This document shows positions 2,994 to 64,000 of a DNA stretch of 64,000 nt, piece by piece. The DNA lies in the NCBI GenBank assembly GCA_903813345.2, contig CAIIXF020000001.1:23374001-23438000 (forward strand), given 5' to 3'. The notes below the pieces were generated by a model, which did no database searches, was not told the origin of the DNA, and saw only the letters and a program-made list of their open reading frames with translations. The stretch's first letter is position 1, and every line of letters begins with the position of its first letter. The stretch is from Owenia fusiformis (taxonomy: Eukaryota). A program made the position numbers and the translations under genes.

Positions 2994-3090
2994 TTTTTAT
3001 GTCACCAACACAGTGGTGACATATTGTTTTGGTCTCCAACTTTTTCGTGTTCGGCGTCTGTAACAAATGGCAGGTGGTTACATTTTGCAG
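2994..3090 (+). mobile_element. Short HINE/MITE-like element, ATGTCACCA family
   Basis: TTTTT-ATGTCACCAACACAGTGGTGACAT hairpin, then TCGGCGTCTGTAACAAATGGCAGGTGGTTACATTTTG, matching the reverse-strand copy at 514-632. Confidence 0.6.
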
Positions 3091-3984: not shown

Positions 3985-4848
3985 CTTGTCATCACGATTC
4001 CAGGTAAACCATCAGACGGATTTACTTCAAGTTTTCACACATGTTACATGGTAAGAAGTTCTAGAGCTGATTAACTCTGCGGCGGCCATCTTGCATTCTG
4101 GCGGCCATCTTGGAATTTTTTTCAGATAAATATTGTCATCGCGATTCCACAAAAACCCCAGATGTAATGATGTACTTCAAATGTTCACACATGTTACATG
4201 GTAAAAAGTCCTAGACCTCATTATTTTTTCGGTGGCCATCTTGCATTCTGGCAGCCATCTTGGAAGTTTTAAGATAAATCTTGTCATCACGATTTCAGGA
4301 AATCCAACCGGATTTACTTCAAATTTCCACAAATGTTACATGGTAAGAAAATATAGAGGTGAATAACTTTTCGGCAGCCATCTTGCATTCTGGTGGCCAT
4401 CTTGGAAATTTTGGGATAAATCTTGTCATCGTGATTCCAGGAAAACAACCTAACAGATTAACTTCAAATTTTCACACATGTTACATGGTATGAAGTTCTA
4501 GAGCTGATTAACTTTTCAGTGGCCATCTTGCATTCTGGCGGCCATTTTGGAAGGTTTATAGATAAATCTTGTAATCACGATTCCAGAAAAACCACTTCAC
4601 AGTTTTACTTCGAATTTTCACACATGTTACATGGTATGAAGTTCTAGAGCTGACTAACTTTTCGGTGGCCATGTTGCATTCTGTCGGCCATCTTGGAAGT
4701 TTTTAGATAAATCTTGTCATCACGATTCCATGAAAACCACGTAACAGTTTTACTTCAAATTTTCACACATGTTACATTGTAAGAAGTTATAGAGCTGATT
4801 AACTTTCTGATAGCCATCTTGCATTCTGGCGGAAGTTTGTAGATAAAT
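3985..4848. repeat. Subterminal tandem array of about 6 x 145 bp in the left arm of the Academ-type element
   Basis: ATGTTACATGGTA-type motif recurs at 4041, 4191, 4333, 4478, 4624 and 4769; most units carry two GGCCATCTTG motifs. Confidence 0.9.
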
Positions 4849-7619: not shown

Positions 7620-8120
7620 GTAACATGTGTAAAAGTTTCAAGAAAATCAGTAAAGTGGTTTTCCTGGAATCACAATGACAAGATTTATCCAAAAAACTTC
7701 CAAGATGGCCGCCAGAATGCAAGATGGCCACCGAAAGGTTAATTAGCTCTAGAACTTCTTACTATGTAATATGTGTGAAAATTTGAAGTAAATCCGTTTG
7801 GTTTTCCTGAAATCGTGATGAAAAGATTTATCTTTAAACTTCCAAGATGGCTGCCAGAATGCAAGATGGCCACCGAAAAAATAATGAGGTCTAGGACTTT
7901 TTACCATGTTACATGTGTGAACATTTGAAGTACATCTGTTATGTGGTTTTTGTGGAATCGCGATGACAATATTTATCTGAAAAAAATTCCAAGATGGCTG
8001 CCAGAATGCAAGATGGCCGCCGCAAAGTTAATCAGCTCTAGAATTTCTTACCATGTAACATATGTGAAAATTTGAAGTAAATCCGTCTAATGGTTTACCT
8101 GGAATCGTGATGACAAGAAA
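7620..8120. repeat. Inverted copy (about 3.5 units) of the 145-bp subterminal array in the right arm
   Basis: CCAAGATGGC..CCAGAATGCAAGATGGCC units at about 7700, 7841 and 7989 are reverse complements of the left-arm units. Confidence 0.9.
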
Positions 8121-10604: not shown

Positions 10605-11770
10605 ATAATACTAGCAAGCTACTGTTCGAGTCGGTCACAGCAGCCCCACATGGCCTTAAAAATAATTCCAAATACCTGGCTATTGACTTTTAACCTTTTC
10701 TGATGCATGAGATGAACTAGCCCAAAGGCCTTAAAAGGCTTAATACCTAGATATTGACTTTTGACCTTGAATTAACATGACCCATCAATAATGACTTTGA
10801 CACCAAGTCGCCTAGTAATGGGTCACCAAGCGTCACAGCATCCCCCGAGTGAAACACCAATACCTAGATATTGACCTTGACCTTGAGATGATCTCAAATT
10901 GAACCATTAAATCATGACTGACCTCATATCACCTTATCACGAGTCGCCAAGGGCCACATCACGACAGCAGCCCCTGTGGCCTTAAAACGCCAAACACTAA
11001 GATATTGAAATTTGACCTTAGATTGACCTTGACCTCAGGTCACGTTTCAATGGAGTCAAGTGCAGCAGCCGCCCCAAAACTCCAAATATTTAGATATTGA
11101 TCTCTGACCTTGACCTATAACAATGACACTGATCTCAGGTCACTTTATCATTGGTGATCAAATGTCACAGTGTAGCCTTAAACGAGCCAACTACCTAGAT
11201 TTTGACCTTTGACCTCATTATAATTTTGAACCATAGATATTGACTTTGACCTAATGTCACCTTAACATGAGTTGCCAAGGGTTATATTAGCCCCCAGGGC
11301 CTCAAAATACCAGAGATTTTGACCTTGTAGGAATGACCTTGACCTCAGAACACATTAATGGGTCCTCACATGAAGCAGCATCCCCGAAATGCCAAATATT
11401 CAGATATTGACCTCTGACCTTGAGATGACCTTGACCCATACACAGTGACATTAACCGTAGGTCACTTTATCTTTGGTGATCAAATGTTACTGAAGACCCA
11501 CAGACGCTAACTACCTATGACCTAGATATTGACCTTTGACCTTGAAATTACCTTGAAATCACCTTATCATTGGTCGCCAAAGGTCACAATTGTTCTCACG
11601 TCAACTTGTTAGATATTGACATTTGACCTTGAAATTTCCTTGATCCATTCAGACCTTGACTTCAGGTCACCTAATCATTGGTTGTGGAGGGTCAAATCAA
11701 CGGCCATGTGTCTTAAAAAGCCAACTACCAAAATATTGACATTTTACCTTGAAATAACCTTGACTTTTGT
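10605..11770 (-). repeat. Degenerate tandem array rich in GATATTGACCTTTGACCTTGA, probably the core of a HINE/Helentron-type element
   Basis: About 10 irregular units with ACCTAGATATTGACC, GGTCAC and CAGCCCC motifs. The minus strand ends in ...GCTTGCTAGTATTATT at about 10605. Confidence 0.65.
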
Positions 11771-39336: not shown

Positions 39337-41076
39337 AATTCAAGTCCACCGTTGCAAGTGTTTAGAAGAGAATGGTTTGGATTACCTCAAACGGTAGCGA
39401 CGTTGCCGATAGAGCATATTCCAGACACTACATTTACGCAAATCCAGGATCGATCTGCGAAATATTCAGGAACCCAACAATCGATGGATTCGGAGAATGA
39501 GATAAAAATTAGAACCTGACTCGCGAAGGCGTCGTATTTTTACTTGGTAAGCGGCCATGCACACTTTATTCATTTTTTCAGTATCAATTCACCTTTTACA
39601 GCCCTCAATGAGATACTATTATTGAAAGAAGATATTAAATATGTTTCTATTGTTTGTGAACTAGGCGAATGGGTACCGTAGCCACGAGGTTGCGAGTAGC
39701 CTGAGTGCCAGAGCTTATTATATAAGGCTGATAGAACTATTGAAAAGGGTATGAATCGTTAACCATGAGGTCTGGGGGTAAGAGCTTGGAACGTGAAGGA
39801 AGATATCATTTAGTCTGATGGGTAAGAGCCTAGTGGATTACGTAATTGTATAGAAAGGGTATGAACCATTTATCGTGCTTGAACATTGGGAATACGAAGT
39901 TATTGCTTACGTGTATGAATCAGTGAGTTCCAACTATATAACCAAAAAATTAAATGAATATATAGAAAAACATCTACCAAAAATACGAAAATAAACCAAA
40001 AATCAAATATTCTATAACAATATATTTAAACAGTAACACATCAACTTCATCTTCAACTGCATCTTCATTTGAAAATATTAGGTGCATAATATTTTGAATG
40101 ACCCCTATGTCAATTCCAATAACTTGATCACGAATATTAAAGATACGTTCATGAAATTTCACCTGTGTGCAAAATTGCACCCGATGTTTTACTGTAGCAC
40201 AAACATTATAGCAGGATTTAATACGGGTCCGCCATGGAGCGCTTGTACTCGTATCTTGATTTAAATTCTTCCAAACACATTAATTTAAAACAAGACATTA
40301 ACATGAAAAAATGTCACTATCTAGTTGCTCACAATATCATGAGTTCAATCTTAGTAAAATTTGAACATTTAATTTGATTTTTTAAAAAAAAATTGTTCAA
40401 TTCGAGGCAAGTTGAAAAAAGTTAGATTTGAACTCTGAGAACTTGTAAATGATTTTGAAAAAATCTGAAGTATTTGTTAAGTTATTGGAAGTTGAAAGAA
40501 TATGTTACAGACGCCAACCACCAACCGCCGTCACAAAACAAACAGACCACAAAAATACTGAATACCCTCTTTAGCTATCCTCAAATAAAATATAGTTTGG
40601 GTGGAAGATATAAGACATGACAAAGAATGACGAGCCTAAATTTTGGAATTCAAAAATTTTTGTTCAAGTTAGGTTGCTCGCTAGATCGGATACTATCTTT
40701 AAAGTAGTACATAATGCCTGAACTCTAATATCATTGGCATTTTATATTCTTTTAAAAACATGTAGAATTATTTGCTATTTATAACCACTACATAAAAAGT
40801 ATGTAAAACATGCTTATTTTCAAAATGTAAACATATTCCATCTAATATTTCAATTGCAGTTTTATTGCTGCAGATGAAATTCGAAATATCTAGTAATAAG
40901 AGTAAAAATCATAATAACAATTTAATAATTTGTCCCAGATCATTACAAAACCAAAAGCAATGCAAAATATGCGACAAATCGTCTTGTATTCATCTTACCC
41001 ATATCAATAAGTAAAGAAATGAAAAACACATTATGCATTATTTATTTGAACGCATCAATTTATCATCATAATTTTA

Positions 41077-45591: not shown

Positions 45592-48249
45592 TTGCAAGCG
45601 AACTGGACACAGTCGATTAATACTGTATGAATAGCGAAATAAAAGCAAATAATAAAAATAAATTATGTTGTATATGATATAGTAGTTATTTTCAGCATTT
45701 CACGACTTGATTGTGTATTGACCTCAACCTGCAGTTTCAGTCAACAATAAAATAAGTTACAGTAACAGTTAAAGGGTTCCGATTAGCATCCCGTATAAAA
45801 ACAATATGGCGGCTCCAGGCGAATCAACTGGATCAGTCAATTTTTAAGAAATAAGGGGAGTTCTGTAAAATCCAGTTTATTGAAATTGTCTTTGAGATAA
45901 AGTAATCCGTTTATAATGATTTTGAAAACGTTATCCAAAGAGTGATTGCGTTCAAAGAATACATGTACAACAGCCAATATAAATCCTTGTTTTAGAAACC
46001 GGTTTGTCTTGCTTTGTTTCATTTGTAGGATATTTCATATGCCAAGCTGTGTGCTATTACGTTATGGGGAAATTTAGATGCCAATTTTTCCTTATTATAC
46101 ACAAATAGAAGATCCTGAAACTTCACCCATAAATGTGGAATTGATTTGTCAAAATAAAAATCACCCTTTTATAAATGTGTGACGATCTATAATATACTTA
46201 TGCTATATATTAAACAGTTAGAATTGTTCACACAACGAGCTCGAACCTGTGAACCCTTGAGTATTATTCCGGGATCGGGCCTTTTATACTAAACGGTGAG
46301 CAACACCAGAAACGAGCGTTCGATTTGCTAAACGATATGCGTCACCCTTTAAGTAAGCAGTTCACTCTGTCAACATCTGGATCTGTCAATGATTGCATAA
46401 CAAATGAAAAGTGAAAAGCGTTTGCAAAAAACACTGCAATGCTGCTATGTAAGTCCAAGTTATTTGGGCATTTTCTCCTCTCCGGAGTTCCTGGATCAAT
46501 CTGTGAACATCAAAATATTTGTTTGGGTAAGGTCAATGAATGCCACAGTTCTAGGATAAAATACCCGCGTGCGCGTCTTACCTGTCTAAAACGAAAAAGA
46601 TATGGAAATCCTCGAAGATGTTATAAAAATTAAGCGGGCAACTTTTGACTTAGGGATAGAAAACATGATTTCTCATGATCATCTTAGACAACAGCTCCAG
46701 TAGTGTGATGAAACCAATTTGAAGTCCTGTTGAGGTATTAAAGGTCACAAAACGAAAGACCCTGATTTCCTGAATCCATCTAGAAGTATTTTTAATTTGC
46801 CTGCATAATATTTGATATCATTATTATAAAGGTTCAATAGCTTTAACCGTGATATATGTTCAAGTCGATCATCAAATAATAATATGTATACGTTTGACAC
46901 ATTCAACAGACTTGGACACGAGGTTTAATTGAAATAAGATTTAGTTAAAATCACATTTTAACTAAATTTAACCAGGACAAGCGAACTAAAATCCAAATAG
47001 ATGACGTCTATCCAATATTTAAACTATTGTCTAATTATACCAATTTTTAATCTCATATGCTGTTTTCAATATGTGAATTTCTTATTAATTATAAATAAGA
47101 ACAATATGGTTCTACCAGAAAGCACATATAATGAAACTTGCAAAATGTTAAATTAAGGTGCACGCGCTTATTAAAATTCCAATGTAAAAGTCAATGTAAG
47201 AAGTGGATGAAAGTAAAATAAAGTAATTTCTTCTCAACTACTGCAAATAACAAGTCTCTATCGATTGAAAGAGCGGGAAGCCTTTGAAATATCATTGAAA
47301 ATGTATTTGAAGGTACATTTGAACGGTGTGTAAATTAAATATACTGGTCTGACTTTACACCATTGCAATATCATGCGTATGCCCGTAGAAATATTTCGAT
47401 TCACATGAATGTTAATACTTTGTTTTGCTTTCAATAACATGAATATACTTCATATATTTTGTGACAAACTGCGGGTTTTTAATAAAATCTATTAAGAATA
47501 TTACACTTTAATATAACAATATTATATATATACGATTTCAATTCGATTTCAATACGTGTCCAACAGTTTCACATTCATTGGAGGAGATTATTGTCCAGGT
47601 GCGAAAATGAAGATGCTCGCTATTTTGACTTTAACATTGGTATTACACCTTTGTTATGGGGCAGGTAAAGAACACTATTTTAAAACTGTATAATTATCAT
47701 AAAATATACGTCAGATTAAAAATTAGATTGTATAATTAAAAGTTTCATTTACCAATATGTATTATTATTAGACTCCAGATTGAAAATCTGGAGTCTATTG
47801 CTTTTGCCAGTTTTCTTATTATTAGACTCCAGATTTCATCTGGAGTCTATTGCTTTTGCCAGTTTTCTTATTATTATTAGACTCCAGATGAAAATCTGGA
47901 GTCTATTGCTTTTGCCAGTTTTCTTATTATTAGACTCCAGATTGAAAATCTGGAGTCTATTGCTTTTGCCAGTTTTCTTATTATTCTTTCTTTCCGCGTT
48001 TTCTCAGCAACTAGAGGGACTTTCTGAAATCTGCTTACATAGTTAGAAAGGTAATGAGACCTAGTTTCCCGGAAATTAGGTCAAATTTTTATCTAGGTCA
48101 AAGGTCAAAATCTAGGTCAAATTATCATTTTGTGAATTATCTTTGTCATTTTTCAATATTTTTCAAATTTTTTTTTTAACGTGTAGCCAAGAAAAAGACG
48201 ATTCGACAGTGAGTTATCAGTTTTTTGATTACTTCTACCGATTTTGAGA

Positions 48250-51200
48250 TATTGCGTCCGGAAAGTAGGTCAAACGAAAAAGTTCTCCAAATTCAACGTA
48301 TGAGTCATGAAATAAGTGTAAAATTTCCTCAGGAATCCAAATCTGCAAACCAAATTTTGATCCGACTTCCGGTTCGGAAGCTATAGCGTTTTGAAATCGC
48401 TAAATTTGGTGCCCATGTTAAGCCAATGGGAAAAAAGACTTTTTCGAAGTGTAAAATACAAGATATAGACTGAGCACAGCTTAACATAATGAATGCCTAT
48501 AAAAGAAGGGGACCTCAAAAGCTACCTAGCTTCAAAATTTGGACACCAAAATGCCTAGGTCAAAATCTAGGTCAAATTCATAGTTTTTCCTTATTTTTAC
48601 GATTCTGACACTACACTTTAATAATTTGCTTCAAAATTTTGTATACAGGTAGCAAAGAGTGTACTAATAGTGTTAGCCTTTTGCCGTCAGAAAGTATTTT
48701 GACCCACTTTTGAGATATGGTGTCCGAAAAGTAGGTCAAAATAAAAATTTCTCATAATTTAACATATGAGCTATGAGTTAAGGGTAGAATTTTCTCAGGA
48801 ATCCGAATCTGCAAACCAAATTTCAATCCGACTTTTCGTTGGGAAGTTATGGCGTTTTGAAAGCTCAAAAATCGCTAATTTTGGTGCCCCATGTTATGTC
48901 AATGAGAAAAAAGATTTTTTTGAAGTGTAAAATACCAGATAAGGACTGAGTACAGCTTAAGATTCTGAAAGTCTATAAAAGAAGGGGACCTGGAAGGCTA
49001 TCTAGCTTTAAAATTTGGACACCAAAATCCCTAGGTCAAAATCTAGGTCAAATACATAGTTTTTCCTTATTTTTGCGATTCTGGCACTACACTTTTAGGA
49101 TTTGCTTCAAAATTTTGTATACAGGTAGCAAAGAGTGGGCTAATAGTGTTAGCCTTTTGCCGTCAGAGAGTATTTTGACCCACTTTTGAGATATGGTGTC
49201 CGAAAAGTAGGTCAAAATAAAAAATTCTCCAAATTTTACATATGAGTTATGAATTAAGGGTAGAATTTTCTCAGGAGTCCGAATCTTTAAACCAAATTTC
49301 AATCTAACTTCTGGTTAGATAGTTATAGCGGTTTGAAGTCTCGAAAAGTCGATATGATGATATCCCCATGTTAAGCCAATGGAGTCGAAGATAAAAAATT
49401 GAGAGTTGTCTAAATGTCTAAATTCTAGCTGACTCGATCAGCTTATTCTGGATGACTCAGCTTACAAGTATTCTGGATGACTCAGCTTAAAAAAAAGTAT
49501 TAAATCTGGAGTCTTAAATTGAACTTGTTCAATTTACATGTCTAGTTATTATTCATTCTTTCTTTCTTTCTTTCTTTCCGAACACTTTTTCTCAGCAACT
49601 AGAAGAACTTACTTTAACCTACTTACATGGCTAACATAGCCCATCAACCTAGTTTCTGGGAAATTAGGTCAAATTTTCATCTAGGTCAAAGGTCAAGAAC
49701 TAGGTCAAATTTAGGTAAAATTAACATTCTGTCAATTATCTTCGTTGTTACTTGTGGTAACTCCTTCATCTTTTTTTCAACATGTAGCTTAGAAAAAAAC
49801 AAATCGAGAGTGTGCCATCCGTTTTTTGATAACTCTTAGCGATTTTGAGATATGGCGTCCGGAAAGTAGGTCAAACTAAAAAAGTTCTCCAAATTTAGCA
49901 TATGAGCTATGAAATAAGGGTAGAATTTTCTCAGGAATCCGAATCTGCAAACCAAATTTCGATCCGACCTCCCGTTCGGAAGAAATGGCGATTTGAAAGC
50001 TCAAAAATCGCTAAATTTGGTGCCCCATGTTAAGTCAATGGGAAAAAAGACTTTTTTTAATTGTAAAATATGAGATATAGACAGAGTGCAGCTTAACATA
50101 ATGAATTCCTATAAAGGAAGGGTACCCAAAAGCTACCTAGCTTCAAAATTTGGACACCAAAATCCCAAGGTCAAAATCTAGGTCAAATTGATAGTTTTTC
50201 CTAATTTTTACGATTCTGACACTACACTTAAATGATTTGCTTCTAAATTTTGTATACAGGTAGCAAAGAGTGTGCTAATAATGTTAGCCTTTTGCCGTCA
50301 GAAAGTATTTTGACCCACTTTTGAGATATGGTGTCCGAAATGTAGGTCAAAATAAAAAGTTCTCCAAATTTAACATATGAGCTATGAAATAAGGGTAGAA
50401 TTTTCTCAGGAATCCGAATCTGCAAACCAAATTTTGATTCGACTTCCAGGTCGGAAGTTATGGCATTTTGAAAGCTCAGAAATTGCTAAATTTGGCCCCA
50501 TGTTATGTCAATAGGGAAAAATATAATTTTGAAGTGTAAAATACCAGGTATAGACTGAGTACAGCTCAACATAATGAAAGTCTATAAAAGAAGGGGACCT
50601 CAAAGGCTACCTAGTTTCAAAATGTGGACACCAAAATGCCAAGGTCAAAATCTAGGTCAAATTCATAGCTTTTCCTTATTTTTGCGATTCTGACATTACA
50701 CTTTAATAATTTGCTTCAAAATTTTGTATACATGTAACAAAGAGTGTGCTAATAGTGTTAGCCTTTTGCCGTCAGAAAGTATTTTGACCCACTTTTGAGA
50801 TATGGTGTCCGAAAAGTAGGTCAAAATAAAAAGTTCTCCAAATTTAATTTATGAGTTATGAATTAAGGGTAGAATTTTCTAAGGAATCCAAATCTGCAAA
50901 TAAACTTTCAATCCGACTCCCAGTTTAGATTCTATGCCATTTTAAAATTCACATTTGTTTAAAATTCACATTTGCCAGTATCCACAATGCAGATCCATCA
51001 AATATACTTTCAACAATTCCTACTTACTTACTTACCTACATACCTACTCGGCTACCTACTTAGCTACCTACTAAGCTACCTACTCAGCTACTTACTCAGC
51101 TACCTACTTAGCTACCTACTCAGCTACTTACTCAATTACTTAATCATCTACATACTCAGCGTCCTACTCAGCTCTTTACTCAAGTAAATCAATCTGGAGT

Positions 51201-54200
51201 CTTAAATTGAACTTTGTTCAATTTACCAATCTAGTTATTATTATTTTTCTTTCCGAACCAGTTTTCTCAGCAACTAGAAGGACTTACTTAAATCTGCTAA
51301 CACAGTCAACTAGGTAATGAGACCTAGTTTCTGGGAAATTAGGTCAAATGTTTATCTAGGTCAAACGTCAAAATCTAGGTCAAATCGTTAGTTTTCACTA
51401 TTTTACAAGTTTTCTCAGTCGTCCTTCGGTATTTTGGCTCCGGTTTTTTTTCATCTTGTAGCTTAGATAAAAAGCTAATTCCGAAAGGCAAATCGTTTTT
51501 TGATTACTCTTACCGATTTTGAGAAATGACGTCCGAAAAGTAGGTCAGAACATAAAAAGTCCTCCAAATTCAACGTGTGAATTATCAAATAGGTGTAGAA
51601 TGATCTCAGGAATCCAAATCTGCAAACAAAATTTCAATCCGACTTCCGGTTCGGAAGTTACAGCGTTTTGAAATCTCAAAATCGCTAAATTTGGCGCCCC
51701 ATGTTAAGTCAATGGGGAAAAAGACTTCTTCGAAGTGTTAAATACGAGATATAGACTGAGTACAGCTTAACATAATGAAAGCCTATTAAAGAAGAGGACC
51801 TCGAAGGCTATCTAGCTTTAAAATTTGGACAGCAAAATGCCTAGGTCAAAATCTAGGTCAAATTTATAGTATTTTCTTACTTTTGCGATTCTGACACTAC
51901 ACTTTAATAATTTGCTTCAAAATTTTGCACACAGGTAGCAGAGAGTGTGCTAATAGTGTTAGCCTTTTGCCGTCAAAAAGTATTTTGACCCACTTTTGAG
52001 ATATGGTGTCCGAAAAGTAGGTAAAATTAAATGTTCTCAAAATTTAACATATGAGCTATGAATTAAGGGTAGAATTTTCCCAGGAATCCGAATCTGCAAA
52101 CTAAATTTCAATCCGACTTTCGGTTCGGAAGTTATGGCGTTTTGAAAGCTCAAAAATCGCTAAATTTGGTGCCCCATGTTATGTCAATGAGAAAAAAGAT
52201 TTTTTTGAAGTGTAAAATACCAGATATAAACTGAGTACAGCTTAACATTCTGAAAGCCTATAAAAGAAGGGGACCTCGAAGGCTATCTAGCTTTAAAATT
52301 TGGACACCAAAATGCCTAGGTCAAAATCTAGGTCAAATTCATAGTTTTTCCTTATTTTTGCGATTCTGGCACTACACTTTTAGGATTTGCTTCAAAATTT
52401 TGTATACAGGTAGGAAAGAGTGTGCTAATAGTGAGAGCCTTTTGCCGTCAGAAAGTATTTTGACCCACTTTTGAGATATGGTGTCCGTAAAGTAGGTCAA
52501 AATAAAAATTTCTCATAATTTAACTTATGAGTTATGAATTAAGGGTAGAATTTTCTCAGGAATCCGAATCTGCAAACCAAATTTCAATTTGACTTTTCGT
52601 TGGGAAGTTATGGCGTTCTGAAAGCTCAAAAATCGCTAATTTTGGTGCTCCATGTAATGTCAATGAGAAAAAAGATTTTTTTGAAGTGTAAAATACCAGA
52701 TAAAGACTGAGTACAGCTTAAGATTCTGAAAGTCTATAAAGAAGGGGACCTCGAAGGCTATCTAGCTTTAAAATTTGGACACCAAAATCCCTAGGTCAAA
52801 ATCTAGGTCAAATACATAGTTTTTCCTTATTTTTGCGATTCTGGCACTACACTTTTAGGATTTGCTTCAAAATTTTGTATACAGGTAGCAAAGAGTGGGC
52901 TAATAGTGTTAGCCTTTTGCCGTCAGAGAGTATTTTGACCCCCTTTTGAGATATGGTGTCCGAAAAGTAGGTCAAAATAAAAAATTCTCCAAATTTTACA
53001 TATGAGTTAGGAATTAAGAGTAGAATTTTCTCAGGAATCCGAATCTGCAAACCAAATTTCGATCCGACTTCCGGTTCCAAAGTTATGGCATGTCCGAAAA
53101 GTAGGTCAAAATAAAAATTCGCCAAATTTAACGTATGAGTTATGAATGAGGGGTAGAATTTTGTCAGGAATCCGAATCTTTAAATCAAATTTCGATCCGA
53201 CTTCCGGTTTGAAAGTTATGGCGTTTTGAAATTTCGAGAAAAATCGATCTGATGTTATCCTGATAGAAAGTCAAAGAAAAAAGATTTTTTTGAAGTGTAA
53301 AATACGAGATATAGATTGAGTACAGCTTAAGATAATGAATTCCTATAAAAGAAGGGGACCTCAAAAGCTACCTAGTTTCAATATTTGGACACCAAAATGC
53401 CTAGGTCAAAATCGAGGTCAAATTCATAGTTTTTCCTTATTTTTGCGATTCTGGCACTACACTTTTAGGATTTGCTTCAAAATTTTGTATACAGGTAGCA
53501 AAGAGTGTGCTAATAGTGTTAGCCTTTTGCCGTCAGAGAGTATTTTGACCCACTTTTGAGATATGGTGTCCGTAAAGTAGGTCAAAATAAAATGAGTTAT
53601 GAATTAAGGGTAGAATTTTCTCAGGAATCCGAATCTATAAACTGATTTTCGATCAAACTTCTGGTTAGATAGTTATAGCGGTTTGAAGTCTCGAAAAGTC
53701 GATATGATGATATCCCCATGTCATGCATATGGAGTCAAAGATAACATTCTTAAGAGTTGTCAAAATGTCTATATTCTAGCTGACTCAGCTTATAGTGAAT
53801 GACTCAGCTTACAAGTAATTGGATGACTCAGCTTACAAGTAATTGGATGACTCAGCTTAAAACAAGTCTTAAATCTGGAGTCTTAAATTGAACTTGTTCA
53901 ATTTACATGTCTAGTTATTATTATTATTCTTTCTTTGCCAGTTTTCTCAGCAACTAGAAGGACTTACTAAAATCTGCTAACATAGTCAGCTGGGTAATGA
54001 GACCTAGTTTCTGGGAAATTAGGTCAAATGTTTATCTAGGTCAAAGGTCAAGAACTAGGTCAAATCGTGTGTTTTCACTATTTTACAAGTTTTCTCAGTC
54101 GTCCTTCGATATTTTTGCTCCGGGTTTTTTTCATCATGTTCCTTAGAAAAAAAGCTAATTCCGTAAGGCAAATCGTTTTTTGATTACTCTTACCGATTTT

Positions 54201-55420
54201 GAGATATGGCGTCCAAAAAGTAGGTCAGAACATAAAAAGTTCTCCAAAGTCAACGTGTGAGTTATCAAATAAGTGTAAAATCATCTCAGGAATCCGAATC
54301 TGCAAACAAAATTTCGATCCGACTTCCGGTTCGGAAGTTATTGCGTTTTGAAATCTCAAAAATCGCTAAATTTGGTGCCTATGTTAAGTCAATGGGAAAA
54401 AAGACTTTTTCGAAGTGTAAAATACAAGATGTAGACTGAGAACAGCTTAACATAATGAATGCTTATAAAACAAGGGGACCTCAAAAGCTACATAGCTTCA
54501 AAATTTGGACACCAAAATGCCTAGGTCAAAATCTAGGTCAAATTCATAGTTTTTCCTTATTTTTACGATTCTGACACTACACTTTAATAATTTGCTTCAA
54601 AATTTTGTATACAGGTAGCAAAGAGTGTGCTCATAGTGTTAGCCTTTTGCCGTCAGAAAGTATTTTTACCCACTTTTGAGATATGGTGTCCGTAAAGTAG
54701 GTCAAAATAAAAATTTCTCATAAATTAACTTATGAGTTAGGAATTAAGGGTAGAATTTTCTCAGGAATCCGAATCTGCAAACCAAATTTTGATCTGACTA
54801 CTGGTTCGGAAGTTATGGCGTGTCCAAAAAGTAGGTCAAAATAAAAAAAATCCAAATTTAACGTATGAGTTATGAATTAGGGGTAGAATTTTTTCAGGAA
54901 TCCGAATCTGCAAACTAAATTTCGATCCGACTTCCGGTTCGAAAGTTATGGCATTTTGAAAGCTCAAAAATCGCTAAAATTGGTGCCCCACGTTATGGCA
55001 ATGGGAAAAAAGATTTTTTTTGAAGTGTAAATTACGAGATATAGACTAAGTACAGCTTCAAATAATGAAAGCCTATAAAAGAAACGGACCTCAAAAGCTA
55101 TCTAGCTTCAAAATTTGGACACCAAAATGCCTAGGTCAAAATCTAGGTAAAATTTATAGTTTTAACTTATTTTTTAGATTCTGACGCTACACTCTAATTA
55201 TTTGCTTCAAAATTTTGTATACAGGTAGCAAAGAGTGAGTTAATAGTGTTAGCCTTTTGCCGTCAGAAAGTATTTTGACCAACTTTTGAGATATGGTGTC
55301 CGAAAAGTAGGTCAAAATAAAAAGTTCTCAAAATTTAAAGTATGAGTAATGAATTAAGGGTAGAATTTCCTCAGGAATCCGAATCTTTAATCCAAATTTC
55401 AATCCAACTTCTGGTTAGAT
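48250..55420 (+). repeat. Core tandem repeats of about 475 bp (610-bp variant) inside the HINE bodies
   Basis: GGACACCAAAAT.CCTAGGTCAAAATCTAGG-type motif recurs at about 48541, 49017, 50152, 50627, 51827, 52302, 52777, 53387, 54507 and 55117. Confidence 0.92.
51018..51185 (+). repeat. 12-bp minisatellite (CTACCTACTCAG)n near the 3' end of HINE body 2
   Basis: Direct inspection; it produces the spurious YLLS-repeat ORF 50972-51187. Confidence 0.9.
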
Positions 55421-55826
55421 AGTTATATCGGTTTGAAGTCTCGAAAAGTCGATCTGATGATATCTCCATGTTAAGCCAATGGAGTCGAAGATAACATTCT
55501 TAAGAGTCGTCTAAATGTCTATATTCTAGCTGACTCAGCTTATTCTGGATGACTCAGCTTACAAGTTTTCTGGATGACTCAGCTTTAAAATCTGGAGTCT
55601 TAAATTGAACCTGTTCAATTTACATGTCTAGTTATTATTATTATTTATTGCTCTCACTATTTACAACAGTGGCACATGAGGAGTATCAGTGCGGCAGAAT
55701 GACATATCATTAAAATACAACATATTACAGCATTAAAAAACATTAAAATATTTGTTAAAATACATTACAATACTGATAATAGACTTTTATCTTCATTGTC
55801 ATTACAGAAAGTGAAAGTGAATAAAA

Positions 55827-58800
55827 TCAATGTTTGAATATCTCTTTATTGATATCAACTAAAAATGTTTTTGATAGCTTATCAAAAGTAGAACCTAGGT
55901 CCTGTCCCCAATATATAGCTACATCATCCCCCAAAATCCAACGTGTTTTCTCAGAAATGGAAAGTTGTAAAAAACTATTGACAATTGAATCCGGGCATTC
56001 TTTATTAAACTTTTCAAAAAACATATTTCGTTGTGTTGTTGTGGATGGGCAAGTAAATAGGCGGTGTTCAAGTGTATCTTTTTCTGAGAGGCAAGTACTA
56101 CAGAACCCATCTGACAGTCCCCTCCTTTCAAGATCAGTATTCAAGCCCAGACATTTAGCGCGAGCTCTGAATTTGATATGCTGGCTGTAAAAATCCATGC
56201 CTGTTTTCAGATAATTTTCTAAAAAAGTATGGTTCTTAACAGTCTTGAATAGTGACAATGATGATTTATCGCATATTGCCTCATTAAAGCATCTTACCCA
56301 TTGTTCATTTGAAATATTTAAATAAGATGTGTACCAGTTAGTATCGTCACGGTATATAACATCATCAAGTCCAACCTCAGTTAGGATTGAGTGGACATTT
56401 TCCATAAAAGGCCATGGTGCCTTGTGACCAAGCTTAAACTCATGTAGCAAATAATTGAAAATATCTTTATGGAGTCCATTCTTCAAGGAACTTTTTAAAT
56501 AAATAAAATAATCAATCTGGCGTTTATGTATAATATCACAGATTGGTCTCCACCCAAGGTCACCAAGGAGGGATTCTCTTGCAGGGTTGCATTTGAGTTG
56601 CATTAAGGCCTTAGCCATTTTGTATTGCATAGTGCTAAGATATTTTTCGGTGGTCTTATTCAGTAACATTACTCCACAACCATGGAGTATTGCAGGCAAA
56701 AACATTCCGTTATACATTGTATTGCCAAAATCAATTCTTTTCATATTACAATGCTTTGTCAGTGTAGAGCAAATCATATTTTGAATTCTTCTTGACTTGG
56801 GTTTTAAAGTGTCTTTAATGTGGTAAGTATCCTTCAAAGAACGGTCAAAATAGATACCCAAATACTTGTAGACTTTTACTTCTGTCAATTCATGTTCCCC
56901 TAATATCCATTTTTTCTCATAATTGATTCTTTGCCCTATAACCATTACTTTCGATTTTTTCGAATTAAATTTAAAACCCCATTCAACTGCAAAAATGTCA
57001 GTTACTTTTAAAAGTTTATTCAATTGCTGCTCAGACTCGCCCATAAGCACTATATCATCGGCGAAAAATAAAGATGGAATTTTTTTACCTTTAAAGTCAA
57101 AGCAAATGTTTTCCTTTTCAAGTGAGCTTAATAAGTCGGTCATTATAATAGAAAATAATGTTGGGGAAAGGCAGCAACCTTGTTTTAAACCTGTTTCTGA
57201 GTCATACCATGGAGTTGAAAAATTTCCAAAAACCACCTTATTAGATATACCTTCATATGTTTTCCTCAGGAGTCTCCAAAATTTACCCTGTATCCCTTTT
57301 TCCCATAATTTCGTAAATAAAATATCCCGATCAATCACGTCGAAAGCCTTGGAAATATCAATAAAAGCCAAAAAAGATTTTTTGTTCTTTGCCTTTCTTA
57401 TGCCACATAGGCCCTTTAAGGCAAATATATGGTTTTCCAATCTCAAGTTGGATCTGAAGGCACCTTGTGTATCCCCAAAGATATTTCTTTTTTCGCAAAA
57501 TGACCTTAATTTACTTTCCATGATAGAAGTGAAAACTTTATAAACATTAGAATTAACTGTGAGGCCCCTGAAGTTATCTAAATTCTCAATATCATTATTT
57601 TTGTGCAGTGGTTTTAATAGGCCTTCTTTCCATTCTTTAGGAATCAGCTCCAATAGTCTTACCTTGTTAAAAAGGTCAAATAATGGTTTCATTAGCGCAA
57701 CTCCACCATTTTTCATAAATTCATTCGGTATCTGATCTGTTCCACAAGATTTCCCATTTTTCAAAGTTTTAATACATGTGGTTATGTCATCAAATTCAAA
57801 AGCGCAAAATAAAAGTGAGTCGGTTGAAAAATTTGACATTGACTTTAACTCATCAATTCTATCCTCAAGGGAAGGTGTGACATGTTTAGGGTTCTTGTTA
57901 ACTTTACCAACACTACCCCAGTACTTAATGAGGGCATCTGAAATTTGCTTGGGGTCTGTTAATATTGTGTCAGTGTCGTCGGGGTTTTTAATCTGTATGG
58001 GATACCCGGCATTAGCATTAAACATGGTCAGCGTTTTCCAATAAGTTTTAGAGCTTTTAGAGCGTTTATATGCATTTCTCGTGATCAACTTAATGTGGTT
58101 CTTAACATGAGCTTCCTTTATCTTAATTTGGACTTGTTGCTTACGGTATAAATAGAGTTCCCACATTTCATGAAGAATATCTGGGTCACATGACCCTAAT
58201 CTACTCCAATAACGGTAAAAGCGCGATGCCTGTTTTCTACTTCTGATTAAACTTTTAATATCATCATTCCATAAAACATGGCGATTAATCTGAAATTGCT
58301 TAACTCCGATAGATTTCATGGCAGCGTTCTTAACATTAGACTTCCACATATTCCAAGCTTCATCTATGTCATTAATGTTTGATATATCCCACTCCATAAA
58401 TTCAGAGTAAATGTTACCTCTAAAAAGGTCCCAATCAGTATTATCAGATATGTTCCACCTAACTGAAGGTGACTCATTCTTAAAGTGAGGCTTGAGTTTG
58501 TGGGGTTTAATATTAGACAACTTCATCACAATGATCAAAAAAGAATGATCGCTACCTACGGAAGCGTGTTCATGGTTTTGGTCAATCAGCATACTCTGTA
58601 AAATATTATCACAAAGTTCATTGACAAAAATATAATCAATAGTGGAGGACTGACCATTACGGGCCCAAGTTGTTTCCCCCTTACATTTAACAGAAAGATT
58701 TAGATTTGTCATTGTGGTAACTTCAGAAAACAGCTCAATCAAATCACCATTTGGACTATTAGATGACTTTCTGAATTGAGGCACTTTACCATTGAAATCT

Positions 58801-59180
58801 CCCATTAATATATTATGCATATTTCCATTTTCAAGTTGGGTAACATTACTTATGAGCTCATTGGTCAGTGCTTCACTAATATCTTTGTCTTTACCATCGA
58901 CTGGGAAATAAGTTACACCATAGTTAAAAATACAGTTATAATGTTTACACTGGATCCATAACCTTTCAAAATCATCATCCATTGAATCTAATAGATTATC
59001 GTTTAAGATAGTAATCTCCTTTTTAATGAAGAACCCAATACCACCGCCACCTTTACCAGCTCTGTTCTTGGAAATGAATTTATATTGATCATTACATATA
59101 GTTAAAGTATTGCACTCATTAAAGAATGTTTCTACTACCCCTAAGATATCATACTTATTAGACTTTAAGAGTTCATTCAA
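55827..59180 (-). CDS. LINE ORF2: AP endonuclease + reverse transcriptase + C-terminal CCHC zinc knuckle (at least 1117 aa, uninterrupted)
   Basis: APE motifs DILGVVET, GGGIGFF, MGDFNG, STIDYI and GSDH; RT motifs KSCGTDQI, FRGLTV, QGAFR, FIDISKAFD, GLKQGCCLSP, FFADD and YKYLG; CSTC-x8-H-x4-C. The frame stays open upstream (YLIVAFNNVQHL, the APE start) but has no ATG there. Confidence 0.95.
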   Translation of the reverse strand: MNELLKSNKYDILGVVETFFNECNTLTICNDQYKFISKNRAGKGGGGIGFFIKKEITILNDNLLDSMDDDFERLWIQCKHYNCIFNYGVTYFPVDGKDKDISEALTNELISNVTQLENGNMHNILMGDFNGKVPQFRKSSNSPNGDLIELFSEVTTMTNLNLSVKCKGETTWARNGQSSTIDYIFVNELCDNILQSMLIDQNHEHASVGSDHSFLIIVMKLSNIKPHKLKPHFKNESPSVRWNISDNTDWDLFRGNIYSEFMEWDISNINDIDEAWNMWKSNVKNAAMKSIGVKQFQINRHVLWNDDIKSLIRSRKQASRFYRYWSRLGSCDPDILHEMWELYLYRKQQVQIKIKEAHVKNHIKLITRNAYKRSKSSKTYWKTLTMFNANAGYPIQIKNPDDTDTILTDPKQISDALIKYWGSVGKVNKNPKHVTPSLEDRIDELKSMSNFSTDSLLFCAFEFDDITTCIKTLKNGKSCGTDQIPNEFMKNGGVALMKPLFDLFNKVRLLELIPKEWKEGLLKPLHKNNDIENLDNFRGLTVNSNVYKVFTSIMESKLRSFCEKRNIFGDTQGAFRSNLRLENHIFALKGLCGIRKAKNKKSFLAFIDISKAFDVIDRDILFTKLWEKGIQGKFWRLLRKTYEGISNKVVFGNFSTPWYDSETGLKQGCCLSPTLFSIIMTDLLSSLEKENICFDFKGKKIPSLFFADDIVLMGESEQQLNKLLKVTDIFAVEWGFKFNSKKSKVMVIGQRINYEKKWILGEHELTEVKVYKYLGIYFDRSLKDTYHIKDTLKPKSRRIQNMICSTLTKHCNMKRIDFGNTMYNGMFLPAILHGCGVMLLNKTTEKYLSTMQYKMAKALMQLKCNPARESLLGDLGWRPICDIIHKRQIDYFIYLKSSLKNGLHKDIFNYLLHEFKLGHKAPWPFMENVHSILTEVGLDDVIYRDDTNWYTSYLNISNEQWVRCFNEAICDKSSLSLFKTVKNHTFLENYLKTGMDFYSQHIKFRARAKCLGLNTDLERRGLSDGFCSTCLSEKDTLEHRLFTCPSTTTQRNMFFEKFNKECPDSIVNSFLQLSISEKTRWILGDDVAIYWGQDLGSTFDKLSKTFLVDINKEIFKH

Positions 59181-60204
59181 TTCATATTGTTTTGAAATTC
59201 CAAGATGCTGGACATTATTGAATGCTACTATGAGGTATAATAACCTTGAACATTAATTTTGTGGCAGATTTTGAATCGTGTGAAAAGAAAGTCATAATGG
59301 AAATCGAAAAAAACGTGGTTGGCTCGATTTAAAAGTGAAGTCATTGGTGACTTCTGTGCAACGAAACAGGTATGTAGATCATCAAATTCATTTCATTTTC
59401 TTCCGAATTATCTCTATGGCGCCGGATCCGGGGGGGGGGGCCAAAAAGTGAGCCTTTTGGTCATTATTGGGCCTTCTAAGGCCTTATTTTTTTAATATTA
59501 GGCTAAATTTTGAAGAAAATGGGCCTCAAATTTTCAAATTTTGGGCCCACTTTTCGGTTTTAGGGGCCCAAAATATTTTTCTAGTACTATTAATAATGCG
59601 AAAATAATGATTTAGAATTTACAAAGAATGAGTTAGAAGTTCTAATTGATAAAAAATCCCTTGATATCGGCGGCCACTTCAAGCCTTTAACAGCAATAGA
59701 ATAACCATAAGGCAGTAATATGCAAAAAGTCACCAACAACATATGTGTTGCAAACTCCGGACGTAAAACACTAAACATCAACCGCCGAACACCAAACGCC
59801 GATCACTTTCCACAAAAAGCTGGTGACTATTAACAATTGTTGTGGTAACATAAAAACTGCCAAAGACTCGGACTAAATAATAATTGTAAAGTGATAAATA
59901 AAAATTGCTTTGGATACTGGCATTATCATTCTTTTGGAACTTTGAAAGTACAAGAAACATAAGAAATATTCATGGGCCAATTTACGATAATTGATATTTC
60001 AAAAAATACAAAATTCGAAAATAAAAATATATTCATATGTCGATGGTTTTTTCTTGAATTGTAGAATAAACACATTATATTTTATAAATTCGTAAGCGGC
60101 ATCATTGGAATTATATTGGTATTTCGTAACCTGAGCAATTTTCAAAGGAATAAAAAATTAACATATTTTCGTTAATCGTTCAATAAGTCTGATTTAATTT
60201 CAAA

Positions 60205-60692: not shown

Positions 60693-61451
60693 GATATTAT
60701 TGTGTGTGTCAAACAAACAATAAACATGTTTCCTTGGATATTTGTATTAAATTGTAAAAATAAAAATGTAAATAGAGTGAACGTTATCGTTTGAAATTAT
60801 TAGCCGCAAATTATTCTGAACGACCCCTATGTCAAAAGCGATAATTGAAGAAATGGGCAAGATACGTTCATTCAATTTTACACATACAGTTCTTCTCCGA
60901 TGCTCTCACTATAGGACAAAGTTTGTAGCTTCATTTGTAATATGGTTTTTCCAGAAGAGGGTGTCTAATAATAATGAATTCTTCAATACATCTGATTTGG
61001 AGGATACGTTTATATAAGACTCCATTAATCATTCCAAGAGTACCCCTTTTACTATGGCATGGCCTACTTTATAACATCATACATTATAAATAATGTTGAA
61101 AAGCAAAATATTTATTCATTTTGACTCTTTTATAATATACAAATGTAAGGCATTTTAATGTAATATATTCCTTTCGCCTTGTTTAATTATATTTGTTAAG
61201 TCTTTCAATTAGTTTAATTTTGAAAGTGAATGGACCGGGTCCTATTTTCACAGGGTCGGTACCAAATTAAGCGTTACAGGTCAAAAAGATTTTTTTCAAC
61301 TTGCTTCAAATTGACCAATTTTTTTCAAATCATCTACAAATCATCAGAAGTTCATGTCTGACTTTAGATTTGAGATTCGACCTTCATTGACCTTCTCAAG
61401 GTCAAAAAGGGTCAAAAAGGTATTTTTCAACTTGCTTCAAATTGACCAATT

Positions 61452-62612
61452 CTTTTTTCAAACTCATCTAGAAGTTCTCAAAAGTTAAATTCTGACTATA
61501 GATTTGACCTTGAATGACATTCTAAAGGTCCAAAAATATTTGACCTTCTCAAGGTCAAAAAGGAGTTTTTTCAACTTGCTTCAAATTGACCAATTCTTTT
61601 TTGAAAATCATCAACAAGTTCTCAGAAGATTCAAATCTGACTTTAGACTTCAGATTTCACCATCAATGACCTTGTCAGGGCCAGAAAAGGTCCAAATATT
61701 GTGAGCAACTAGGTGGTGACATTTTGTCATGTTATTGCCTTGTTTTCGTCTCCCACCCTCTGAATTTTCGGGGCCGCCCCAGGTGTTGGTTTAGCATGGA
61801 AATTATTTATGTTTGGGCAGGGGGGTGCAATCATTTTCATTGGAATCGATATAAAAGTATTCTGGCACTTACAATGACCAAGACGTGCAAGCAATATTTA
61901 TCATTGGGGTAAATGTTGTATGGTTATGTGTCAGATTGGAAATAAAAAGAAAGCATAGCATGTTGAATAGAAATGTACGTAAAGGTTACATTCTTCTTTT
62001 TTCAAACTCATCTAGAAGTTCTCAAAAGTTAAATTCTGACTATAGATTTGACCTTGAATGACATTCTAAAGGTCCAAAAATATTTGACCTTCTCAAGGTC
62101 AAAAAGGAGTTTTTTCAACTTGCTTCAAATTGACCAATTCTTTTTTGAAAAACATCAACAAGTTCTCAGAAGATTCAAATCTGACTTTAGACTTCAGATT
62201 TCACCATCAATGACCTTGTCAGGGCCAGAAAAGATCTTTTTCAACTTGCTTCAAATTGACCAATTTTTATCTACAAGTTCTCAGAAATTCAACTCTGACT
62301 TGAGTTTGAACTAATAATATTGTGAGCAACTAGGTGGTGACATTTTGTCATGTTATTGCCTTGTTTTCGTCTCCCACCCTCTGAATTTTCGGGGTCGCCC
62401 CAGGTGTTGGTTTAGCATGGAAATTATTTATGTTTGGGCAGGGGGGTGCAATCATTTTCATTGGAATCGATATAAAAGTATTCTGACACTTACAATGACC
62501 AAGACGTGCAAGCAATATTTATCATTGGGGTAAATGTTGTATGGTTATGTGTCAGATTGGAAATAAAAAGAAAGCATAGCATGTTGAATAGAAATGTACG
62601 TAAAGGTTACAT
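61452..62612. repeat. Near-identical direct duplication (61452-61991 and 61996-62612) covering the 3' end of an ATGTCACCA-family element plus its flank
   Basis: Duplicate ORFs 61504/62048 and 61724/62345; the second copy has about 77 extra bp near 62233-62315. Confidence 0.9.
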
Positions 62613-62665: not shown

Positions 62666-63190
62666 AATATATTGTTTCTTGGTTTGGCAATGACTCATTC
62701 GTTGCTGTAATTTAAATATAAACATAAAAATACGAATACAACTAACTTTTGATCGTACGTTTATATTTCACATAATTTTAAAGTAATTTTGTATCCTCCA
62801 ACACATGCTTAATAAGGTTTTACAAAGACAATTCAAATAATTCAAAAATTAAATAATGACGATCTAAACAGTTTTATTAAGTACTTTCATTTCTCAAAAT
62901 AATAATCTAAAAAAATTTTTTCCAAAGATATAATATATTGTTTCTTGGTTTTGCAATGACTCATTCGTTGCTGTAATTTAAATATAAACATAAAAATACG
63001 CATACAACTAACTTTTGATCGTACGTTTATATTTCACATAATTTTAAAGTAATTTTGTATCCTCCAACATACGCTTAATAAGGTTTTACAAAGTCAGTTC
63101 AAATAATTCAAAAATTAAATAACGACGATCTAAACAGTTTTATTAAGTACTTTCATTTCTCAAAATAATAATCTAAAAATATTTTTTCCC
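62666..63190. repeat. Tandem duplication, 2 x about 266 bp
   Basis: AATATATTGTTTCTTGGTTT.GCAATGACTCATTCG starts at 62666 and 62932 with near-identical continuations. Confidence 0.9.
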
Positions 63191-64000
63191 AAATATGATA
63201 TTTTAATGTTTGGAGGATACAAAATATTGGACAGCCTAACTTGAATTCACGACACTCAAGCATATATCTCCATTGTCTGCAATCGAAGATATGTCATCAA
63301 AATGTACCTTCTGGCATATCTTTCACCAAAATAATGCATCAATAGTGTATATAAATATGGCCTATGTGTTGGAGGATACAAATATTTGACAAGTCGTATA
63401 CATATAGTAAAACACACTTAATTATGTGACTAAGACATATATCAAACATCCCGCTTACAAGAGTTGGTAGCACATACATTTTATTAACATGCTCAAAAAT
63501 ATCAGTGCAATCGATACATTTTAATTAGGTTAAGAAATCCGAGTTTATATTTGCCGAAAACATAAAATATTTCTTAATTGTCTAAAAATCCATCATTAAA
63601 GTGATCTTTTTTAAAAAGATAAGGAATATTCCAAACACGTACCTCGTGGTTATTGCTTAAAGTCTGGTCAACAAAAAATACATTGCATGTCCAGGAAATC
63701 AACATATGTCGCAGTCTCTAGTACAACGTCAACAGATTTCTAAAACATCAATTATCGTAAATTGTCCCTCATATTCTATCGATAAGGGGTAAACACCTAA
63801 ATGAATTTATCATCACAATCTAATTCAGGCCGAAGTTAATGGTTGGAGTGCTGCCCTTGCCTCTTGCGGTGATGACACGTCTGCAGACATGATACAATTA
63901 CAGCTGCTCTATTGGGGAATCAATATAAAAGAGAATGAACAGGAATGTCCCGGTCTGAATGTGGATGAGAAAATTTTAAAATATCTGACACCAAGTAAGT

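Follow-up and report, generated by a model that had tools for sequence, protein, structure and literature searches.

Four hairpin modules and four bodies at one locus

The DNA analysed here, referred to as the window, is a 64 000-nucleotide stretch of the Owenia fusiformis genome (GenBank assembly GCA_903813345.2, contig CAIIXF020000001.1, positions 23,374,001 to 23,438,000 of the forward strand), and all positions given below are counted from its first letter. Towards its right-hand end lies a block in which four short 5′ hairpin modules (heads) are followed by four much longer bodies, each of which closes with a tail. The parts resemble those of HINE/DINE-1 non-autonomous Helentrons, and the block probably consists of four such elements inserted one within another.

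A preliminary description of this DNA had placed four hairpin modules at 47770, 47824, 47879 and 47932, the positions at which an 11-nt 5′ subterminal inverted repeat (subTIR), AGACTCCAGAT, begins. All of these coordinates hold, as do the loops, which read TGAAA, TTC, GAAA and TGAAA in heads 1 to 4 respectively. Each module is made up of a TTA tract (8 or 11 nt), the 11-nt AGACTCCAGAT, the loop, the complementary inverted repeat (IR) ATCTGGAGTCT and a 19-nt block, ATTGCTTTTGCCAGTTTTC; the four modules are identical except for their loops and the number of TTA units. The head array (47762–47985) is real, but the fixed 55-bp period once ascribed to it is not, as the modules measure 52–56 bp each and Tandem Repeats Finder (TRF) reported a period of 54 bp with 4.1 copies. 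The chance expectation for the hairpin pattern was 0.00 (100 shuffles of the window). Folded as single strands, the heads formed predicted stems of 12–13 bp at −11.4 to −12.4 kcal/mol (z −6.0 to −6.8), and none of 200 shuffles folded as stably. Pattern and similarity searches, in which relatives were sought at E 1e-5, found no extra head, tail or body copy in the remaining 56 kb of the window.

The bodies, which range from 1.6 to 2.7 kb, occupy 47978–49545, 49546–51234, 51235–53914 and 53915–55631, as had been described. In every body a TTA tract comes first, then a CTTT run and ...TTTTCTCAGCAACTAG, and this end has no hairpin; the CTTT run comprises one to five units and is not repeated in every body as formerly stated, body 3 having one unit. 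A 3′ subTIR, a palindrome and CTAG were found at the other end in four of four bodies. Within the 64 kb the tail sequence ATCTGGAGTCTTAAATTGAAC was found at 49504, 51192, 53873 and 55590 only (0 expected by chance), and the 3′ subTIR in all four tails is ATCTGGAGTCT, the perfect complement of AGACTCCAGAT in all four heads. The palindrome, TAAATTGAA...TTCAATTTA, has a stem of 9–10 bp located 9 nt before the CTAG end, and its predicted folds are modest and weaker than those of the heads (−5.2 to −7.1 kcal/mol, z −1.8 to −2.8). The tails close with ...TCTAG at 49545, 51234, 53914 and 55631, and TTATTATT follows each time. Internal tandem repeats with units of 474–476 bp are present in each body; in bodies 1–3 TRF reported 2.3 to 3.3 repeat copies with 86–90% matches.

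The four bodies are separate family members of different subfamilies and not local duplicates, because they carry subfamily-specific segments, their pairwise identity is 84–92%, and body 2 has its own minisatellite and tail. Bodies 3 and 4 share one type of segment between the conserved core and the repeats, and bodies 1 and 2 have other types there, while a 12-bp minisatellite and a particular tail variant are confined to body 2. Private substitutions in bodies 1 to 4 numbered 19, 31, 3 and 2 over 268 aligned 5′ columns and 2, 81, 3 and 4 over 248 aligned 3′ columns. An ordering of the bodies by age from these substitutions was rejected as uninformative, the bodies being of different subfamilies.

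Evidence for nested insertion

The four heads precede the four tails in bracket order, with a single orientation throughout. We read the block, with rather more confidence than doubt, as four nested HINE-like elements in the same orientation, H1[H2[H3[H4-B1]B2]B3]B4, where H and B denote heads and bodies. The element at 47932–49545 is uninterrupted and served as the model of a whole copy, which runs through a TTA tract, the hairpin (5′ subTIR and IR), the 19-nt block, TTATTATT, a CTTT run, the conserved core, a variable segment, the 475-bp repeats, the 3′ subTIR, the palindrome and CATGTCTAG. Nesting is the best reading because only the bracket pairing gives four complete canonical elements. 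When each layer was excised by inspection as TATTATT...CTAGT, the junction C-T/TATTATT-CTTT was restored at all three inner junctions, and this restored junction is that of the intact element (19-nt block, TTATTATT, CTTT run).

Raw reads of the same species were mapped to 47450–48240, a stretch free of long repeats. In one of these runs (X15) an additional T was present in the loop at head 3 in 667 of 2581 reads, one nucleotide was missing at head 4 in 333 of 2942, and head 2 was extended by A in 233 and by AA in 119 of 1431. All three loop forms are common family-wide, and the heads are therefore better accounted for by a draw from the family pool than by a local duplication with later mutation, which would need three changes restricted to the loops, one of them an inversion, with 196 other positions unchanged. 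Among the matches listed, the heads showed no difference from the read majority; if the heads do equal that majority, the four insertions would all be young and the differences between the bodies would predate insertion. Nested insertion, as originally proposed, is the most economical reading given the independent bodies, the family-wide loops and the four complete elements that only the bracket provides, yet it is unproven.

Two features of the heads are recorded here as separate observations. The loop TTC of head 2 (47835–47837) is the reverse complement of the GAA in the other loops, so that this hairpin appears 'flopped'; ∼16% of the loop-covering reads (1431 of roughly 8800, run X15) mapped best to the TTC form, and TTCA and TTCAA variants were also present. 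Loop orientations both ways across the family hint at hairpin inversion, via template switching or as a by-product of transposition. In addition, the 3′ part of the head (47959–47977, CTTTTGCCAGTTTTCT) is nearly repeated behind the microsatellite of body 4 (53929–53947, CTTTGCCAGTTTTCT) and more weakly in bodies 1–3. A whole element therefore has a ∼15-nt direct repeat flanking its microsatellite, which may be a footprint of the origin of the TTA pad.

Assignment to the HINE/DINE-1 family

In the accessible portions of the relevant papers, HINE/DINE-1 elements are defined by the order of their modules: a 5′ subTIR and, close by, an IR complementary to it come first, then a microsatellite, the conserved block and the central tandem repeats, and finally the 3′ subTIR with a palindrome near the 3′ end (Thomas et al., 2014, PMC4067079; Vojvoda Zeljko et al., 2020, PMC7492417; Yang and Barbash, 2008, PMC2374699). 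The characters listed there include subTIRs of ∼11–15 bp, a 3′ palindrome ∼8–35 bp from the end, insertion between T and T without target site duplication (TSD), and an autonomous Helentron partner with Rep/helicase and AP endonuclease and with matching ends.

The layout had been ascribed to this family beforehand, and seven of nine listed features were found, namely subTIRs, a 5′ IR hairpin, a microsatellite, central tandem repeats, a 3′ palindrome, no coding capacity and a high copy number. The subTIRs are 11 nt long and perfect in four of four heads and four of four tails, with the IR 3–5 nt away. The microsatellite behind the 5′ block consists of a TTA tract and a CTTT run at the intact junction (47978–47995) and at all four body starts. 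No stop-to-stop frame of at least 150 aa overlaps 47762–55631, and the only large open reading frame (ORF) in the window is that of a long interspersed nuclear element (LINE). Read depth over the heads was 1700–2900 per run as against 0–8 on the unique flank, which would correspond to roughly 3000–4000 head units in the genome if its size is ∼640 Mb, a value assumed from the contig total of run X1. As to the remaining part of the ascription, a TT target without TSD, TTA tracts flank every layer on both sides; a T–T insertion fits these tracts, as would an 8–11-bp duplication (8/8 and 11/11 in the innermost two layers). By structure, the assignment of the stack elements to HINE/DINE-1-like non-autonomous Helentrons is supported.

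The stack elements are like Cg_HINE from Crassostrea gigas and DINE-1 from Drosophila, as far as the available parts of those descriptions go, in module order, T-rich flanks, lack of coding sequence and species-specific central repeats (PMC4067079, PMC7492417, PMC2374699). They differ in the microsatellite, which is a TTA tract with a CTTT run here and of the GTCY or CCGT/CTGT types in the portions describing HINE/DINE-1, and in the central repeat, which is 475 bp here and mostly 140–180 bp in the accessible account of Cg_HINE. The family could be one of the named Cg_HINE or Repbase Helitron-N families or distinct from them. A literature search with the two subTIR 11-mers gave only unrelated primer matches among the matches listed.

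Relatives in reads and contigs beyond the window

Head–head junctions with spacers other than those of the window were detected in run X15. They comprised a loss of three nucleotides at 47816 (140/1875 reads), a gain of TTC at 47864 (110/2081), a loss of six at 47868 (101/2392), a gain of TTCTTTA at 47920 (112/2518) and a loss of three at 47924 (289/2868), giving at least 752 reads (140 + 110 + 101 + 112 + 289). This number far exceeds what one locus can supply, so that rows of heads must be frequent in the genome. Long head rows are a minority; 21 809 of the 22 105 mapped reads of the run overlapped the stretch in part only, with 56 nt aligned on average, about one module. Among the matches listed, which covered the six largest classes per raw run, all classes of loose ends fell within the conserved core. 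Behind the core, the consensus of the loose ends in the read pile-up is similar to body 2, and body-2-type copies are therefore probably the commonest in the genome. Contigs of three other samples contained 65–74% of the 31-mers sampled from 46900–56400, and in a marine plankton metagenome (X10) 0.05 of the words were present.

Two further observations came from the same material. The core motif at 48071–48124 (GGAAATTAGGTCAAAT...CTAGGTCAAAGGTCAAAATCTAGGTCAAAT) had a read depth of 10 000–11 700 in each run, exceeding the depth of any one head several-fold; it is common to contig L001 (described below) and, in part, to each 475-bp repeat unit, and within a larger superfamily no other block appears to be shared so widely. 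A 235-nt contig of run X1 with single-copy depth (51.9) matches 47593–47762 and then continues with 64 unmatched letters; it could be an allele without the stack.

A scan of metagenome contigs with the hairpin pattern returned two loci. One of them, L002, was a bacterial terminator-like palindrome and no relative, and two loci with the pattern in prokaryote genome contigs were likewise discarded as bacterial chance palindromes. Viral contigs gave no match to the hairpin, the core, the tail or the head block. The other locus, L001, is a whole contig of 1463 bp and a true relative of the stack family. Its sequence begins with ...ATCTAG and TTATT and then runs through four heads and a single body, in which the same core motif is present, to a tail ending in ...AAAGCTTAG and to TTTTT at the contig end. 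L001 shows that four-head rows recur, and its contig end leaves further bodies possible. Since a tail stands directly before its first head, insertion can also take place in the TTA tract that follows a tail. In its heads one of 22 stem sites is variable as compared with five of 19 in the 19-nt block (Fisher p ∼0.07, a rough calculation by hand); a stem that is kept while the block varies would be anticipated had each head once functioned as a 5′ end, and is unlike neutral decay of local duplicates. The sequence directly before the L001 core equals the loose-end consensus of X1 contigs at 48071, and the L001 type is consequently present in the species of the window. Similarities of L001 to 61279–62276, 40375–40463 and 10862–11545 were weak and were put down to other repeat families without this head.

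A probable order of events

We infer the order of events from the arrangement of the parts. The first arrival, now the outermost copy, probably inserted into the TAA-type tail of the LINE next to it. Each newcomer would then enter the TTA tract beginning 46 nt downstream of the first base of the resident's hairpin, so that the resident was divided into a head of 46 nt and a body without a head; with the newcomer's own intact TTA tract in place, the site would stay open. The machinery would recognise TTATT on one strand only, as expected of an HUH-type single-strand transposase, a strand specificity suggested because all layers and all five L001 ends point the same way. A tract beside a resident 5′ hairpin may be preferred as a target. 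Mobilisation of such a stack from its outer head to the first tail would produce a multi-headed element with a single body, as in L001.

Observations weighing against nesting, and alternative explanations

Several observations weigh against nested insertion. The flanking TTA tracts measure 8–14 nt, each as long as the sole intact pad (8 nt); a plain cut within an 8-nt pad cannot give such tracts, so that a terminal TTA of the element's own, a duplication or an expansion is required, and the equal tracts on both sides of the two innermost layers (8/8, 11/11) are TSD-like. By our own reasoning, the innermost pad must be hit every time, which has a chance of 1 in 6 if the pads behind the heads are equivalent, and a pure bracket has a chance of ∼1 in 105 if all TTA tracts are equal targets. 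The heads are identical while the bodies differ by 8–16%. A divergence falling from the outer to the inner layers, predicted at the outset, was not seen, as body 1, which should be the youngest, departs from the read majority at no fewer than 13 places in 48016–48069; this result weighs little, the majority probably being of another subfamily. In L001 a tail lies directly before four heads, with one visible body before the contig end, and the frequent head–head junctions together with L001 fit a hotspot, multi-headed derivatives or amplification of heads alone equally well. No solo copy was found in the 64-kb window at E 1e-5 or in the viral contigs. Depth on the unique left flank was 0–8 in three raw runs, with several empty bins, the dips in depth not being significant according to the tool. 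In plants, moreover, rolling-circle amplification of truncated Helitrons is held to yield many 5′ ends and one 3′ end, according to the available parts of two later papers (Xiong et al., 2016, via PMC12628747 and PMC8268682).

The preliminary description had gone on to propose a self-renewing insertion sink that builds arrays without unequal crossover. The sink draws indirect support from the head–head junctions and L001, but the same facts fit the alternatives, and array growth without unequal crossover was not demonstrated.

The most serious alternative, which we regard as unlikely, is that two processes were at work, the 54-bp head module having been amplified by itself and headless (5′-truncated) copies having entered, one after another, the TTA tract behind the previous tail or having been brought together by recombination, so that the equality of four heads and four tails would be coincidental. 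Amplification might proceed by rolling-circle replication on a truncated template, or by slippage or unequal exchange between the flanking TTATTATT repeats, and the 8-nt direct repeats that flank each module are a classic slippage substrate. Plant Helitron arrays with many 5′ ends and a single 3′ end are described in the accessible portions of PMC12628747 and PMC8268682, and the identity of the heads outside their loops, the four heads and one visible body of L001 and the 752 or more junction reads all agree with such a process. On this account, however, two mechanisms and a numerical coincidence are needed. All three adjacent pairs of heads differ in the loop, one by inversion, and at none of 49 other positions, the loops being common family forms, and the L001 heads vary in the 19-nt block yet keep the stem, unlike neutrally decaying duplicates. 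The mobility of headless copies is doubtful, as the 5′ subTIR that defines the 5′ end is absent from them. A truncated rolling-circle array should have many 5′ ends, one 3′ end and near-identical units, whereas the block has four 3′ ends and bodies of 84–92% identity; L001 alone would fit.

It is a good deal less probable that nesting is real but that multi-headed derivatives, spanning an outer head to a first tail, arrived as ready-made units. L001 is exactly the expected product, standing directly behind the tail of another element, and head–head junctions are common; arrivals of this kind should leave heads in excess of bodies, though, where four and four are found, and most head reads do not come from long arrays, to judge from the partial alignments in run X15 (21 809/22 105, mean 56 nt).

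Unequal crossing-over that duplicated whole bodies, followed by divergence as in an ordinary kilobase-scale satellite, is very improbable. The common orientation and direct adjacency of the bodies fit it, as do the 133-bp duplication shared by bodies 3 and 4 and their 90.6% identity over 900 bp, and Helitron-linked 'satellites' with ∼2-kb monomers are listed for Crassostrea gigas in the accessible part of PMC8268682. Against this, the segments behind the core in bodies 1 and 2 are those of other subfamilies, body 2 stands apart in its 3′ region and tail, the bodies diverge by 8–16% as against zero among the heads, and the four heads are left unexplained. An assembly artefact, in which reads of dispersed copies were misjoined, is the least credible explanation of all: the low depth and empty bins on the left flank and a family of thousands of copies would favour it, but the bodies (84–92%) are distinct enough for unambiguous placement of long reads, the head array spans merely 224 bp, and 65–74% of the sampled 31-mers recur in contigs of the three other samples.

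Features of the block and its surroundings

The features of the block are collected in Table 1, together with the LINE to its right. The LINE ORF is an open frame of 1141 aa with matches to reverse transcriptase (E 1.9e-30) and endonuclease (E 7.9e-11), and 177 bp separate the end of the frame from the stack. On the LINE strand, the TTA tract that borders the stack on the right is a TAA-type run; the TAA-type 3′ simple-repeat tail of the LINE was therefore probably the original target of the outermost element.

Table 1. Components of the hairpin–body block and the adjacent retrotransposon, by position in the window.
Feature	Position	Strand	Reading
Left TTA tract, TATTATTATT, abutting head 1	47760–47769	+	Left over from the genomic target, or the TTA at the 5′ terminus of the outermost element
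Head 1: AGACTCCAGAT, loop TGAAA, IR ATCTGGAGTCT, 19-nt block	47770–47815	+	Under nesting, outermost 5′ end, with body 4 as partner
Spacer TTATTATT and head 2, loop TTC	47816–47867	+	Under nesting, partner would be body 3
Spacer TTATTATTATT and head 3, loop GAAA	47868–47923	+	Under nesting, partner would be body 2
Spacer TTATTATT and head 4, loop TGAAA	47924–47977	+	5′ end of the sole uninterrupted element, 47932–49545
'Landing pad' TTATTATT, the only intact internal one	47978–47985	+	In the innermost element, flanked by the 19-nt block and the CTTT run
Body 1: CTTT run, conserved core, 476-bp repeat ×2.3, 3′ subTIR at 49504, palindrome, CTAG	47986–49545	+	
Body 2: TTA tract, 5 CTTT units, 474-bp repeat ×2.3, 12-bp TACCTACTCAGC minisatellite ×11, divergent tail ...ACCAATCTAG	49546–51234	+	
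Body 3: 475-bp repeat ×3.3, 133-bp internal duplication, tail	51235–53914	+	
Body 4: first 900 bp 90.6% identical to body 3, same 133-bp duplication, tail	53915–55631	+	Same subfamily as body 3
Right TTA tract	55632–55650	+	On the minus strand, a TAA-type run 3′ of the LINE ORF
Non-LTR retrotransposon ORF, endonuclease and reverse transcriptase	55827–59252	−	Context, outside the stack

To the left of the stack, 47607–47665 contains an ATG, a hydrophobic stretch, MKMLAILTLTLVLHLCYGA, and then GTAAAG, resembling a first exon with a signal peptide and a splice donor; on this sequence pattern the stack may be intronic. In this segment the raw reads from a different individual had fixed differences at 47618, 47646 and 47649. 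Elsewhere in the window, one repeat of 145–147 bp forms two arrays in opposite orientation, 2.8 kb apart (3984–4832, 5.8 copies; 7619–8118, 3.4 copies), which may be the arms of another repeat-carrying element. At 61279–62276 and 61690–62610 units of ∼120–145 bp with 78–79% similarity to a stretch inside L001 are interspersed with a ∼300-bp block that is itself duplicated, and a separate 266-bp repeat is present in two copies at 62666–63201.

Relation to known systems and implications

It is commonplace for transposons to be inserted within or beside one another. For HINEs nested in order within their own kind at the 5′ microsatellite of the element, no description was found in the accessible literature, subscription papers on Pearl, MgE and DTC84 and supplements lying outside it; the four-copy nest has no counterpart in the available parts of the HINE/DINE-1 descriptions (PMC4067079, PMC7492417, PMC2374699).

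A known parallel for repeated landing at one place is that of tandem transposable element (TE) dimers, for which a preference for an insertion site, combined with preservation of the target at insertion, is held to give dimers that seed satellites (McGurk and Barbash, 2018, PMC5932611, accessible portions). Those dimers are like the stack in that a surviving target lets a second copy land at the same place. In the dimers, as described in the parts available, the target is external, is regenerated as a TSD and the copies stand head to tail, whereas in the stack it lies inside the element behind the 5′ hairpin, the copies are nested, and heads and bodies fall into two arrays.

Helitron arrays with multiple 5′ ends, insofar as they are covered by the accessible portions of the papers cited above (Xiong et al., 2016, via PMC12628747 and PMC8268682), share with the stack a row of 5′ ends before a body, as is also seen in L001. 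Unlike them, the stack has 3′ ends equal in number to its 5′ ends and bodies of different subfamilies, which one amplified template does not provide. The 'shuffled' Helitron loci of the Pacific oyster, where the available text describes truncated or tandemised parts inserted in other elements (PMC12628747), resemble the stack in that Helitron/Helentron parts are tandemised and inserted in elements of the same kind; those loci appear there as complex and scrambled, in contrast to the clean, ordered bracket of four complete elements at one internal site found here.

For nested insertion itself, the step of widest consequence would be that the TTA tract 46 nt behind the hairpin start is a true hotspot, where machinery recruited by the resident hairpin reads TTATT on one strand. 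We put this forward tentatively, as a possibility with less in its favour than against it. If the nest arose by chance only, it would be an ordinary feature of a transposon-rich animal genome. If the hotspot is true, the family would nest into itself thousands of times above chance, and its stacks would shed multi-headed derivatives running from the outer head to the first tail. Helitron arrays with many 5′ ends and one 3′ end, and kilobase-scale satellites linked to Helitrons, would then have an origin by insertion, with neither rolling-circle amplification nor unequal exchange. Self-targeting would also offer a simple route from a dispersed Helentron-type element to two tandem arrays, one of 5′ hairpin modules and one of multi-kilobase bodies. 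The literature examined yielded no experimental evidence on how Helentrons choose their targets; if self-targeting is true, that choice would be strand-specific and would take place beside a hairpin recognised by the transposase, in a microsatellite that the element itself carries.

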